From assembly GCF_054482595.1 (NCBI RefSeq), contig NZ_CM137008.1: DNA of 64,000 nt. One strand, given 5' to 3'. Below are positions 27,001 through 33,000 of the stretch, one piece after another. Every line of letters starts with the position of its first letter. Positions within the stretch are counted from its first letter, which is position 1. The position numbers are program-made.

Positions 27001-30000
27001 TTATGTAATGGATGCTGCGGCATCGCTGATTACCTACGGCATTATGCTCGGCGAAAAACCTGCCGTGCTGTCGGCTATCGTTAAGTATCACTGTACCCAC
27101 CGCGGGCAGCAGTCGATTATTGATGCGATGGATATTACCGGCGGTAAAGGCATTATGCTCGGGCAAAGCAACTTCCTGGCGCGTGCTTACCAGGGCGCAC
27201 CGATTGCCATCACCGTTGAAGGGGCTAACATTCTGACCCGCAGCATGATGATCTTCGGACAAGGAGCGATTCGTTGCCATCCGTACGTGCTGGAAGAGAT
27301 GGAAGCGGCGAAGAACAATGACGTCAACGCGTTCGATAAACTGTTGTTCAAACATATCGGTCACGTCGGTAGCAACAAAGTTCGCAGCTTCTGGCTGGGC
27401 CTGACGCGCGGTTTAACCAGCAGCACGCCAACCGGCGATGCCACTAAACGCTACTATCAGCATCTTAACCGCCTGAGCGCCAACCTCGCCCTGCTTTCTG
27501 ATGTCTCGATGGCAGTGCTGGGCGGCAGCCTGAAACGTCGTGAGCGTATCTCGGCACGTCTGGGGGATATTTTAAGCCAGCTTTACCTCGCCTCTGCCGT
27601 TCTGAAGCGTTATGACGACGAAGGCCGTAATGAAGCCGATCTGCCGCTGGTGCACTGGGGCGTACAGGATGCGCTGTATCAGGCAGAACAGGCGATGGAC
27701 GATTTACTGCAAAACTTCCCGAACCGCGTGGTTGCCGGGCTGCTGAATGTGGTGATCTTCCCGACCGGACGTCATTATCTGGCACCGTCTGACAAGCTGG
27801 ATCATAAAGTGGCGAAGATTTTACAAGTGCCGAACGCCACTCGTTCACGTATTGGTCGCGGTCAGTACCTGACGCCAAGCGAGCATAACCCGGTTGGTTT
27901 ACTGGAAGAGGCGTTGGTGGATGTGATTGCCGCCGACCCGATTCATCAGCGGATCTGTAAAGAGCTGGGTAAAAATCTGCCATTTACCCGTCTGGATGAA
28001 CTGGCGCACAACGCGCTGGCGAAGGGGCTGATTGATAAAGATGAAGCCGCTATTCTGGTGAAAGCGGAAGAAAGCCGTCTGCGCAGTATTAACGTTGATG
28101 ATTTTGATCCGGAAGAGCTGGCGACGAAGCCGGTAAAGTTGCCGGAGAAAGTGCGGAAAGTTGAAGCCGCGTAATTGAATAACGGAGCCGAAAGGCTCCG
28201 TTTCTTTATCCGCTAATTATTTAAAATTAAAGCCATCCGGATGGTTTTCCAGGCTGCCGGTCAACGCCGCGAACAGCACCGTTTTACCATCAATCGAAAG
28301 CGCATCGTTCACATTCAACCAGGTGAGTTTCTCTTGCGACGTTTTCTCATCAATAGTCGAGAACAGCCCCGTCATCTGATTAGATTTCTCGGACCACATC
28401 ACAGCGATACGTTGCGAGCCACAGTCATGCGGTTTGCACGCGCTCATCACCTGATACGTCTCATCTCCCAACGTTACGGTTTGTGCGGGAGTATAAGTAC
28501 CGCCTTTCATCACCCATGCAGGTAGCTTATGCCCTTGCACCATCTGATTAAACGCAGCTTTGGTGGTTTCGCCCTTTGCCAGGCTGCTAATGGTTAAATC
28601 ATCCTGCGCCATTGCACTGGTGGCGATGACCAGAGCGGCGACTGTCGTTATTGCCTTAAACATCATTCCTCCCGAGCTTATCCTGCCCATGTTATTAACC
28701 TCCTAAAGCCTGGCGATAACACGATAATTTGCAAATCAGATATTTCCAATATCAGCGTTGGTTATCAATTTATTCTGCGCTAAGGCAACTGCCTGATAAG
28801 GTGTTAAAGTTATAAAACCCTTCGCATAAAGGAGTTGTACACCGTGCCTGGTTTGAAGATTACGCTTTTGCAGCAACCACTGGTGTGGATGGATGGTCCT
28901 GCCAACCTGCGCCATTTTGATCGTCAACTGGAAGGTATTACCGGGCGCGATGTGATCGTTCTACCGGAGATGTTTACCAGCGGCTTTGCCATGGAAGCGG
29001 CAGCTTCGTCGCTAGCGCAAGATGACGTAGTGAACTGGATGACAGCTAAAGCGCAGCAGTGCAATGCGCTGATTGCAGGCAGTGTTGCATTACAAACGGA
29101 GTCTGGTTCGGTTAACCGCTTTTTGCTGGTTGAGCCGGGCGGCACGGTACATTTTTATGATAAGCGTCATCTGTTCCGCATGGCAGATGAGCATCTGCAT
29201 TATAAAGCGGGCAATGCGCGAGTGATTGTGGAATGGCGCGGCTGGCGTATTTTGCCGCTGGTGTGCTACGACTTACGTTTTCCTGTGTGGTCGCGCAATC
29301 TCAACGATTATGACCTCGCCCTGTACGTCGCCAACTGGCCTGCTCCGCGCTCTCTGCACTGGCAGGCATTGCTGACGGCCCGCGCGATTGAGAATCAGGC
29401 GTATGTGGCGGGATGCAATCGCGTCGGCAGCGATGGCAACGGCTGCCATTATCGCGGTGACAGCCGGGTGATTAATCCACAAGGCGAGATTATCGCTACT
29501 GCCGACGCGCATCAGGCAACGCGCATTGATGCCGAGCTGTCGATGGCGGTGTTAAGGGAATATCGCGATAAGTTTCCGGCATGGCGAGATGCGGATGAGT
29601 TTAGGTTGCGGTGAGTGGGGGCTGTGTTTAGGGCCGGGGAGAGTCGGGGTAAGACTACGAAAGCCCGCTCTCCTGCGACCACTTTTATCATAGGAGTGTG
29701 GAAGCGCTTTTCCATCAATCGCGATGACGTCTTTGTCATTTGATGAATGGCAGTCACGCATCCAGTTAATAAAGCACTCGTGAAATTTTGCAGGACTGAT
29801 ACAGGATACAACTCTGGCAATGGTATCGTGAACAGGCATACCATTTTCAAAATCACCATATTGCTTCAAAAAATCGAGATGTGTTTCCCCAAAACCCTCT
29901 ATATCTTCCCAACCTTCTGCACCAGAAATAACGGCACAAATAGTCAACAGTAGAATATCCGATAATTTATGTTCCACGTTCCAGGCTTGTCTGTAATCAG

Positions 30001-33000
30001 GGATAATAGAAATATGTTCCATCAATTTTTTAAGTTCCATTTTGTTCTCCTTAATTATGCAAGGAGTATTTGATCATGTATAAGCAATAAAAACAGCTTC
30101 AGGTAATGAGGAATATCTCAATTTTTAAACATAAAATGCGAACTATTTAGTACAAAAAGTGAACTTCTGATGATCTTTCCCTGGATTTACATTAGGTTGG
30201 TTATTTTCCATACCCACAACTATATTTTCTCTCTGAATTTAATACGTGCAAGACAATCGCAGCACTCTAACTGACTTCGATGTGATTTGATGTTCAGAAA
30301 AATCCCTCATTAGATTATTATCATGAAATACAGCCAATTATCTTTAGTTTTTATATTTCTCAATATATTCTTTTGAAAGGATTCGCGCCTTTTCAAACTC
30401 TTCAGGAGTTAATCTATTTTCCATCTTCAATTTATATTGAACACTTTTATCAAGTCCATGAGCGTATGCGGCACTGAACCAGGCATATGCCTTTTTATTA
30501 TCGAGTGGTAACTCTTTCGTGCCTACGGAATAGATTAATGCAAGATTATGTTGTGCAACAGGATCACCATGTGTGGCTGACTTTCTTAACAGTTCTATTG
30601 CTTTATATTTATTTACAGTAATCCCACCCAGTCCTTCATAGTAAAAGATACTTAGTGCTGATTGTGCTTTTATGAAACCTTGACTTGCCGATTTATCATA
30701 CCAAAAGGCGGCTTTATTATAATCCTTTTTAATAATAACGCCTTCATAATAGAGTCGCCCTAAATGATACTGAGCAACCTTATCCCCTTGCTCCGCAGCG
30801 ATACGATACCACTTATCTGCCAGATCTTTTTTATTAGTCTCATCATATAGTAAAGCAAGGTTAGTTTGAGCCGTAACTAATCCAGAATTTGCAGCTTTAT
30901 TTAACCACGCTATGGCCTTACCATAATCTCTTATCACGCCACTCCCTTTACTATATAATACTCCTAAGTTTCCCTGCGCTTCTGGAAAACCTTTTTCAGC
31001 TGCCATTTGATAACATTCAAATGCTTTTTCATAATTTTGAGACACCCCATAACCATGAGCATACATAACACCGAGGTTATACTGAGCCTCTGTCAGCCCC
31101 TGTTTTGCTGCAAGCGAGTACCAATATACTGCATCTTTATAACTCTGGATTCCTTCAGAACCACTTCGATATAACTCCGCGAGTTTAAATTGCGCAGTAG
31201 CATCTCCCTTATCAGCATCTTTTCTTATATATGTCATTTTATTGGAGGCTGCTGTGTCTTCTGTCACCCCAATTGCAACAGGAATACTCAACACTTCAAA
31301 AAAAAACATCACAACAACACACATTAATATTTTTCGGTTATTTTTTATCGGCATCTTTTTTATCATCACCTTTAAATTTATCTACCGCTTCACTAGAAGT
31401 CATGTCAGTAATATAATCTCCAAATGCATTTTCAGGCACAAAGGGTAATTTACCCAAAGTTGCACCTAATAATTACTCCGCTCCTGTATCAGCAGCAGCA
31501 TAAACACCAGATTTAAAATCCCCTCCCTTACTTAAAAATGACAATCCCATTTTCAAAGCTATTTTCTCAACAAACGTTTTTCCCGCTCCCCAAGAACCAC
31601 CTAAAGCACATAGCGCCAACTCGGATTTATCCGGCATCTTATGATCAGACATATAGTCAGTCGTAGCAACCGCACCACATGAACTAAGACTTCCAATTGC
31701 TATCTCCCCCCATGTAAGAGTCCCCCCTTCTAATGCAGCCGCACTTGCTACTGGCCCGGTAAATACTACTCCGGCAATAACAGGAGGCAGTAAAGCCCAT
31801 CCTTTTACATAATCGTCTAATGGATTATACACTCCACGCATACTTGAAAAATCATCCAACGCTTTAAATTTTTCTTCATCTGACAGGTTCGGGGCGAATC
31901 CAACATTAGCCCCCTGCATAGTGTTATAATAATTAGTTCCAAATATCATTTGCGGCGTTACATTAGCTAACCCCAACGGATCTATATGTTCAATAGGATT
32001 GAGTGGGTACTGGTAAGGATTTAATCCTCCTTCCAGCCCAATCGGGTCCTGGGTGATATACCGTCCCTGCAACGGGTCATAGTACCGGTGACGGTTGTAA
32101 TACAGCCCCGACTCCTCATCATACTGCTGTCCCGGCAGACGGTACGGCTGTTGCAGGTGCTGCGCGCTGGTTTCGCCCAGCAGGTTTCCCCACTCGTCAT
32201 ACTCCCCCTGCCACGCCGTTTCCCCTTCCGGGCTGATGAGCGCCTGCGGCAGTCCCCGGTGGTCACAGTGGTAAAGATGAAGTTTCCTCTCCGGGATGTA
32301 TTCCGCCTCCAGTTGCGCCGCCATCTGTTCCGCCGTCAGCCCGCACTGCGCAAGCCATGCCTCACTCTCCGCACTCACCGCACCCGCGCGCAGTTCCCGC
32401 TCCAGCCTTCCCAGCATCACCGCCAGCTCCGCCGGTAGCGTCACCCCCGTGTCCTCCTGCAACACCTCCGCCAGGCTCCGGTGCCGCGCCTTCGCCTGTT
32501 CGCCATTCTCTGTTTCGATTCTGATGAGTGGTGTGAAGCTCCCCGGCTGGTATACCGTCTGGATACGCGTGGTGCCGGTCTGTACCGTCGTCAGCCTGTC
32601 ACCGTCCCACCCGTACCAGGTTACCTCCGGTTTACGCGACAGCGACATCCACCCCGTCAGGTCACGCTCCCGCCGCCACACCCGTTTTCCCGTCCGGCGG
32701 CCCAGCGGGTCATAGAGGTAGCGGCTCTCCACCTGCGGCTCACCGTGCTGTATCCGCGTGTAGAACACCAGACGGTGCTGGCTGTCGTAGTGGTAGTGGT
32801 GGGTCCGCTCGTCGTGCATCCGTATCACCCCTTCCGGGATGCGGTCCGTCTTCTCCGCCAGCCTGCCGTATTCATCGTGGCGGTAGACATAGTGCGCATC
32901 TTCCGCGATGCGGTTATCCGGCCACGCCGTGAAGGTACTGTCCGGGTGCAGTTCCGGGTCCGGCAGCCGGTTTCCTGCCGGGTCCGTCGCATACGGGATA

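Follow-up and report, generated by a model that had tools for sequence, protein, structure and literature searches.

Two described systems stand closest to the locus analyzed here. The first is the T6SS island of E. coli at aspV (tRNA-Asp), which has been assigned to subtype i1 as 'T6SS/1' (PMC5422975) and described as the 'T6SS-2 organisation' (PMC8715443), with aspV clusters reported from O157 and EAEC 042 (PMC5363993, PMC2808357). The second is the ISEc1 or H-rpt element (ISAs1 family) of the E. coli Rhs loci, represented in K-12 by yhhI at RhsB, ydcC at RhsE and ybfD/ybfL at RhsC. We analyzed a 64,000-nucleotide stretch of contig NZ_CM137008.1 (assembly GCF_054482595.1), hereafter the window. 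Like the known aspV T6SS island, the one in the window lies between aspV (62212-62288) and yafV, with the T6SS core inside, and possesses a full tss set, Hcp, VgrG and an adjacent Rhs element; the annotation of XH990, a near-identical genome (2 substitutions across 39 kb compared), lists tssA-M, Hcp and VgrG. It departs from the known island in its Rhs tip, which comes with a Sel1 gene, in the cargo module that follows Hcp, and in a tssH interrupted by an in-frame stop. It is 97% identical over 26.7 kb to the aspV island of strain 1283, whereas K-12 matches the window at 25033-29673 and 61230-63719 only. On the minus strand VgrG is followed by Rhs (31473-35750), a Sel1/TPR gene (30344-31369) and an ISEc1 relic. 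Like the K-12 H-rpt elements, the relic therefore occupies the Rhs accessory position, distal to the Rhs core ORF and the C-terminal tip/immunity genes.

A preliminary description of the window, made from its sequence, had recognized a truncated H-repeat (ISAs1-type) gene at 29552-30040, with H-rpt homology ending after about 125 aa and the ORF then running antisense into the 3' end of yafV, and each of these points is borne out. The ORF, on the minus strand, has 162 codons, and aa 1-125 are 91% identical to the ISEc1/H-rpt transposase. Residues 8-94 match Pfam DDE_Tnp_1_assoc (PF13808, E 2.4e-33), and residues 29-124 match the NCBIfam ISAs1 transposase model NF033564 (E 3.7e-34) at model positions 1-96 of 314 only. 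Compared by BLASTP with the intact 378-aa, yafV-adjacent transposase of strain 1283, the ORF has 114 identities in its first 125 residues and nothing past them. The catalytic domain PF01609 (DDE_Tnp_1), at aa 102-343 of the full-length ISEc1 transposase, gave no match to the window ORF in a Pfam profile search. Since this domain is absent and the homology ends at aa 125, we regard the feature as a relic of an ISAs1/ISEc1 member and not as a functional one. The ORF tail and yafV share 63 nt (29552-29614) on opposite strands, whereas the transposase stop of full-length copies falls 41 bp short of yafV. In XH990, where the relic is 100% identical, RefSeq/PGAP annotates the 125 codons equivalent to window 29666-30040 as a pseudogene ('ISAs1 family transposase, incomplete, missing C-terminus'), so that as a pseudogene the ORF is already known.

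Why does the protein homology stop at aa 125, ~50 bp from yafV? The proximity to yafV would suit an H-rpt gene whose 3' part was simply cut away where island meets backbone, with the end of homology as the boundary, as the preliminary description supposed. Alignment with full-length elements refutes this reading, which we consider extremely unlikely. Beyond the break come 21 bp that form the genuine 3' end of the IS, with its inverted repeat and stop codon; the backbone spacer joined to this end is the one also found where the element is full-length, and the missing 751 bp are internal. Position 29666 is an internal deletion junction, not the edge of the island; the 21 terminal bp of the IS lie past it, at 29665-29645 (Table 1).

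Table 1. Features of the ISEc1 relic and its surroundings, in window coordinates
Feature	Position	Strand	Content or basis
yafV (2-oxoglutaramate amidase), last backbone gene before the island	28844..29614	+	NCBIfam PRK10438 amidohydrolase, E 1.9e-164; XH990 PGAP
Backbone spacer, yafV stop to IS right end	29615..29644		Alignment, blastn end points
ISEc1 (H-rpt) relic, 539 bp, both termini kept	29645..30183	-	Aligned to the K-12 yhhI 1291-bp ISEc1 and to the full-length elements that PM22 and strain 1283 carry at this site
Final 21 bp of the IS	29645..29665	-	Degenerate right inverted repeat CGGGGTAAGACTA and original TAG; alignment
Deletion junction, 8 bp	29666..29673		CGCTCTCC on +, GGAGAGCG on -; blastn and alignment
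Transposase codons 1-125	29666..30040	-	N-terminal DDE_Tnp_1_assoc domain complete; DDE catalytic domain reduced to its first ~24 residues
Out-of-frame tail, 37 codons and stop	29552..29665	-	Crosses the old stop, IS end, spacer and yafV antisense
IS 5' untranslated region	30041..30183	-	Left inverted repeat CAGGGAAAGATCA at 30171-30183; promoter-like site 30082-30054; AAGGAG ribosome-binding site
Rest of the aspV island, missing in K-12	30184..61229		Sel1/TPR gene, Rhs, VgrG, Hcp, T6SS core, cargo genes

The relic consists of IS nt 1-519 and the last 21 bp, and has the ISAs1/ISEc1 inverted repeats at both ends, at well under half the length of a canonical ISEc1 (539 versus 1291 bp, ~1.29 kb). 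Its right repeat (29645-29657) matches the left one at 10 of 13 positions, compared with 11 of 13 in the canonical yhhI copy, and the original TAG (29655-29657) is now out of frame. The relic has the left inverted repeat and the N-terminal transposase domain in common with the K-12 H-rpt elements, and is ~92-95% identical to them at the nucleotide level over the retained 518 bp; it differs in lacking 751 internal bp and the DDE catalytic domain, in its degenerate right repeat and in its length. In the full-length copies the 8 bp of the junction align on both sides of the missing 751 bp, as the direct repeat GGGGAGCG / GGAGAGCG, and the blastn segments of the window against PM22 and strain 1283 (29400-29673 and 29666-30189) overlap there. 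Breakpoints were taken from blastn, as MAFFT spread non-homologous K-12 upstream bases through the alignment. A promoter/terminator scan found 4 sites against 2.4 expected from shuffles, near the shuffle level. A second motif resembling the left repeat, with 2 mismatches, lies at 46997-47012 inside the T6SS core genes and was treated as a chance occurrence.

The spacer between yafV and the relic is conserved in K-12, PM22, strain 1283, Nissle and 30COLEC, and as far as 29638 in O157:H7, in which another element occupies the site and the match to the window stops. By these alignments the island/backbone boundary is the right end of the IS, at 29639-29645, inside the 29615-29670 interval that had been proposed for it. 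The relic does mark the yafV-side edge of the Rhs/T6SS island.

Illegitimate recombination or replication slippage between the two 8-bp direct repeats inside the IS would have lost the 751 bp, removing nearly all of the DDE catalytic domain while both IS ends stayed in place. Because 751 is 3 x 250 + 1, the reading frame that opens at the intact start codon shifts by +1 at codon 126, misses the original TAG, and crosses the IS end and the spacer to a chance stop within the yafV antisense strand, giving rise to the 162-aa ORF. We infer the slippage mechanism and the relic's lack of function; its anatomy, the junctions, their distribution and the K-12 deletion are shown directly by the sequences. 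The same junction is present, each time as one uninterrupted match, in 1075 of 5426 complete E. coli genomes, which carry one copy each, always beside yafV; PM22 and strain 1283 have the full 1291-bp ISEc1 at this site. The deletion-bearing relics share the derived residues N21, SSND, ALPH and SGRRRA, which indicates a single origin. The 5' IS part in the window resembles yhhI-type ISEc1 (~95%) more closely than it does the copies beside yafV in PM22 and strain 1283 (~92%), and gene conversion among IS copies may therefore have blurred the history of the relic.

An element with both inverted repeats, in a species where most genomes contain full-length ISEc1 copies, could conceivably be a MITE-like non-autonomous derivative that is mobilisable in trans by the full-length transposase. 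We hold this to be highly improbable: the junction occurs once per genome and always next to yafV, the right repeat is degenerate (10/13), and comparison of the flanks AACCTAATGTAAATC and ACTCTCCCCGGCCCT reveals no target-site duplication. The multiple dispersed copies with target-site duplications typical of a MITE were found neither across the 5426 genomes nor at the relic flanks. H-rpt transposition has, moreover, reportedly never been observed (PMC3032704).

The N-terminal domain of the relic is complete, and three lineages (the window, 2EC1 and 30COLEC) have kept the ATG, the ribosome-binding site, the promoter-like site and 125 codons in frame. By analogy with truncated transposases of other IS families, it might then be a domesticated DDE_Tnp_1_assoc-only protein, which would bind the ends of ISEc1 and modulate how the full-length copies transpose. 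This appears very unlikely, as most sampled genomes with the junction lack the N-terminal half or have internal stops, the relic is found once per genome and at one locus only, non-synonymous changes are concentrated just before the junction, and the C-terminal tail is not conserved. In 2EC1 and 30COLEC a 1-bp indel changes the frame, and the tail after the junction is therefore entirely different from that of the window; the overlapping frame antisense to yafV is not conserved among these relatives. Most other lineages sampled have relics that are further truncated or interrupted by internal stops, and pN/pS among relics is 0.25, a value based on only 3 synonymous and 3 non-synonymous differences, too few to tell constraint from neutral change. 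More specifically, the 125-aa N-terminal DNA-binding half, expressed on its own, could bind H-rpt ends and repress or titrate full-length ISEc1 copies; this seems very unlikely. If true, such a 125-aa repressor might help account for H-rpt transposition never having been seen in E. coli.

The preliminary description also pointed to the K-12 pseudogene yafF, beside yafV, as an H-rpt remnant, and suggested that K-12 had lost the island by deletion. By blastn, K-12 corresponds to the wild strain 1283 with exactly 30,009 bp taken out: of the two flanks, positions 1-3603 of the K-12 locus match strain 1283 at 99.97% and positions 3599-8501 at 99.98%, with a 5-bp overlap, GTTCT, as microhomology. 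The missing span extends from inside yafU to IS nt ~1001 and takes away the whole T6SS/VgrG/Rhs block. Its left breakpoint lies inside a 304-aa gene, of which the yafU pseudogene is the K-12 remnant, and its right breakpoint inside the 378-aa transposase gene, intact in strain 1283; breakpoints within yafU and H-rpt thus explain the orphan pseudogenes yafU and yafF. The K-12 junction, searched with positions 3500-3700 of the K-12 locus, is present in 371 genomes. Among the 40 matches listed, all 40 are identical to MG1655 across it, and nearly all are named K-12 laboratory strains or derivatives.

Might yafF instead be a partial H-rpt insertion of separate origin, in a K-12 lineage that never had the island, which other lineages acquired by insertion? 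Nothing except the absence of T6SS genes from K-12 speaks for this history, which we give next to no probability and which the blastn comparison of K-12 with strain 1283 refutes. Each of the pseudogenes yafU and yafF is one truncated half of a gene that strain 1283 has in full, the two breakpoints join at the 5-bp microhomology, and K-12 has the same IS/backbone junction as island-bearing strains. Loss by deletion follows because an insertion cannot complete two truncated genes. The suggested loss was thus correct, and sequence comparison strongly supports loss in one 30,009-bp deletion, an instance of ordinary genome decay. It is a routine comparative result, and we did not find an explicit description of the K-12 deletion junction in the literature searched, though it may be recorded elsewhere.

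What was said of yafF needs amending. Like yafF, the window relic derives from an orthologous IS insertion, with an identical IS-end/backbone junction, and is convergent with yafV. The relic keeps nt 1-519 and the last 21 bp, whereas what K-12 retains is the 3'-terminal 291 bp of the IS (nt ~1001-1291, with transposase codons ~286-378), so that only those 21 bp are common to both. The ISEc1 homology begins at 3599 of the K-12 locus and annotated yafF (b4503) at 3691; the annotated gene comprises the last 62 transposase codons (317-378) and has no overlap with the 125 aa of the window, a different and almost non-overlapping piece of the transposase. Two outcomes of aligning the window with K-12 yafF-yafV and full-length H-rpt genes had been named in advance as counting against the original view, a different breakpoint and a yafF that is not homologous; the first was found (IS nt ~1001 versus ~519/1270) and the second was not. 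The two truncations are separate events, and a separate, microhomology-mediated deletion of 30,009 bp left yafF and removed the T6SS/VgrG/Rhs block in K-12. Very probably, then, the window preserves a single ISEc1 copy as a relic without function, the last component of the island, some 30 bp past the yafV stop codon, and yafF is the other fossil of the same insertion, created by that separate deletion.

The relic carries little weight in itself and serves as a landmark that places the edge of the aspV T6SS/Rhs island on the yafV side to within a few bases. Together with strain 1283 it shows K-12, the universal T6SS-negative 'prey' strain, to have descended from a T6SS-bearing ancestor through a recent deletion of 30,009 bp, and the exact junction gives a precise recipe for restoring the island in K-12.

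Did E. coli K-12 lose the Rhs/T6SS island that lies between tRNA-Asp aspV and yafV, or did it never have it? Loss was suggested in the preliminary description, and comparison with strain 1283 bears this out. K-12 MG1655 matches the window at 25033-29673 and 61230-63719 only. K-12 and strain 1283 share 99.97% identity towards aspV and 99.98% towards yafV, and the order in strain 1283 is aspV, yafT, ykfM, a gene of 304 aa, Hcp, VasL and tssM through tssB, followed by Hcp, VgrG, Rhs, a small ORF, an intact ISEc1 (H-repeat, H-rpt; ISAs1 family) and yafV. Removal of exactly 30,009 bp from the strain 1283 sequence gives K-12. 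The pentamer GTTCT is common to both ends of this deletion, whose left breakpoint in the 304-aa gene produced the pseudogene yafU and whose right breakpoint in the transposase produced yafF. Both K-12 half-genes are whole in strain 1283, and nothing but a deletion in K-12 can explain this. The resulting junction is present in 371 genomes; among the matches listed (40 of 371), all have the MG1655 sequence over the join, and nearly all bear the names of K-12 laboratory strains or their derivatives.

T6SS clusters at aspV are established in E. coli and Salmonella (PMC2808357, PMC5363993, PMC2907695, PMC8715443), and the Rhs site "b0215-b0221" has been recorded as occupied in strain W and empty in K-12, with no deletion described (PMC3032704). 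The literature library searched gave no paper that sets out the K-12 junction explicitly, an absence that is weak evidence. The T6SS block has also been lost, with the window-type relic of ISEc1 kept, in 2EC1 (6366-8993 of the extracted locus), where IS1 and a second ISAs1 fragment are associated, and in 30COLEC (7397-10728), where a truncated ykfM is joined directly to an Rhs C-terminal fragment; these two losses are independent.

The window is from E. coli and over 25001-64000 differs from strain XH990 (NZ_CP019359) by 2 substitutions in total. The gene order is fadE, ivy, yafV, the ORF in question, a Sel1/TPR gene, Rhs, VgrG, Hcp, a complete T6SS set, cargo, aspV, dnaQ and rnhA. The 162-aa ORF had been described as about 125 aa of H-rpt homology running antisense into yafV, and this is correct as written: it matches Pfam DDE_Tnp_1_assoc at aa 8-94 (E 2.4e-33) and NCBIfam "ISAs1 family transposase" at model positions 1-96 only, of 314; its aa 1-125 are identical to the intact 378-aa transposase at 114/125 positions, the rest being unrelated; and its antisense overlap with yafV is 63 nt. 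PGAP calls exactly 29666-30040 an incomplete ISAs1 transposase pseudogene.

Features of the yafV-aspV region, in window coordinates
Feature	Position	Strand	Sequence	Basis
yafV	28844-29614	+		
162-aa ORF	29552-30040	-		
Right inverted repeat	ends at 29645		CGGGGTAAGACTA	alignment
Left inverted repeat	ends at 30183		CAGGGAAAGATCA	alignment
tRNA-Asp aspV	62212-62288			

How the gene came to be shortened differs in detail from the truncation first proposed. The window element was aligned with three references: the canonical ISEc1 of K-12 yhhI (1291 bp, length checked) and the yafV-adjacent copies of PM22, a full-length gene with an internal stop, and of strain 1283, in which the gene is intact. 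Both IS termini are kept, and the loss is internal. In PM22 and strain 1283 the counterparts of window 29400-29673 and 29666-30183/30189 sit 751 bp further apart, and the 8 bp by which these segments overlap form a direct repeat in the full-length copies (GGGGAGCG; GGAGAGCG in PM22). The simplest origin of the deletion would be illegitimate recombination, or slippage, involving the two repeats. Since 751 is 3x250+1, translation goes out of frame at codon 126; the old TAG (29655-29657) is now read CGT-AGT, and the shifted frame crosses the IS end and a 30-bp spacer before entering yafV antisense and meeting a chance TAA stop at 29552-29554. Almost nothing is left of the DDE catalytic domain, which spans aa 102-343 of full-length proteins. 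The K-12 IS homology runs from locus position 3599 (record position 239,098) to the IS right end; these 291 bp are transposase codons ~286-378, of which annotated yafF is the last 62. yafF therefore represents another part of the IS than the relic does, a detail on which the preliminary description was wrong: the insertion is orthologous, but only the terminal 21 bp are common to both.

The spacer (29615-29644) and IS-end junction are identical in K-12, PM22, strain 1283, Nissle 1917 and 30COLEC. O157:H7 has ISEc26, another ISAs1-family element, at nearly the same point, and its match to the window ends at 29638. These observations place the island boundary at 29639-29645, inside the predicted 29615-29670. 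What defines it is the IS terminus; equating it with the point where protein homology stops (29666) was a mistake of detail in the preliminary description. In O157:H7 RIMD 0509939 (locus positions 6080-7345) ISEc26 lies within ~6 bp of the ISEc1 end position elsewhere and is followed by Rhs fragments and a second ISAs1 copy, which suggests that the element was replaced or the same site used repeatedly. The last yafV stretch and spacer (29433-29673) have 20 mismatches/241 bp (8.3%) with K-12, above the 0-3.8% per 400 bp of the deeper backbone, and are 98% identical to PM22, a pattern suggestive of a recombined tract that moves together with the island edge.

With a 211-bp probe that has the deletion junction in its middle, 5426 complete E. 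coli genomes were searched for a single place giving at least 80% coverage; 1075 were positive, with one place per genome, always adjoining yafV. The relic might be taken for a MITE-like mobile element, and against this stand the absence of copies at other loci in these genomes and of a target-site duplication at its flanks. A 1.1-kb probe reached at least 80% coverage in 2017 genomes, and two pieces over ~1636 bp predominate among the matches listed, indicating a full-length IS at the yafV site. In most junction genomes examined the relic has been cut again, at ~29770 to 29862 (Nissle 1917, 23CRST027, SCAID, PRO_A and two FDAARGOS strains), with internal stops annotated and unrelated island content alongside. 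All 125 codons are kept in few lineages only, window/XH990, 2EC1 and 30COLEC, whose common derived residues, absent from full-length copies, indicate one origin. Beyond the junction a 1-bp indel puts the tails of these lineages in different frames; the part that overlaps yafV is therefore not conserved.

Of the island content in the window, tssH/clpV (48932-51670, +) has an in-frame TAG at codon 273 (49748-49750, confirmed by translation) and the VasL-domain gene (57381-58791) is annotated as frameshifted in XH990; the T6SS, complete-looking though it is, is thus probably non-functional. The Rhs gene (-) reads TAA at 31473-31475, where XH990 has GAA; this one substitution, at 31475, stops the ORF 45 codons short of the XH990 CDS (31338-35750 in window coordinates). 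With those codons go the last part of the C-terminal tip and the 17 nt by which the XH990 gene overlaps the start of the downstream Sel1/TPR gene. The island aligns with strain 1283 over 26.7 kb at 97% identity, leaving only 30184-32001 (Rhs tip and Sel1 gene) and 58691-61229 unaligned. The latter is a cargo module past the second Hcp (a DUF1311 gene and small ORFs), its counterpart in strain 1283 and K-12 being yafU-ykfM; the aspV-side K-12 match ends within a yafT-like gene, at 61230.

H-rpt/ISEc1 sequences are distal parts of Rhs loci, annotated as ISAs1-family IS with transposition unobserved (PMC3032704). Expression of the intact N-terminal-domain ORF, the only alternative of interest left, is very improbable, and the decay pattern points to a relic without function; it is an ordinary IS pseudogene, already annotated. 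In Nissle 1917 (locus positions 6107-12211) and several other strains the neighbour of the twice-truncated relic is a gene for an ICE-type protein. Beyond this gene Nissle 1917 has IS630, HTH regulators and a type I secretion/large repeat protein locus where other strains have the Rhs/T6SS genes; the relic has thus persisted while the island content was exchanged.
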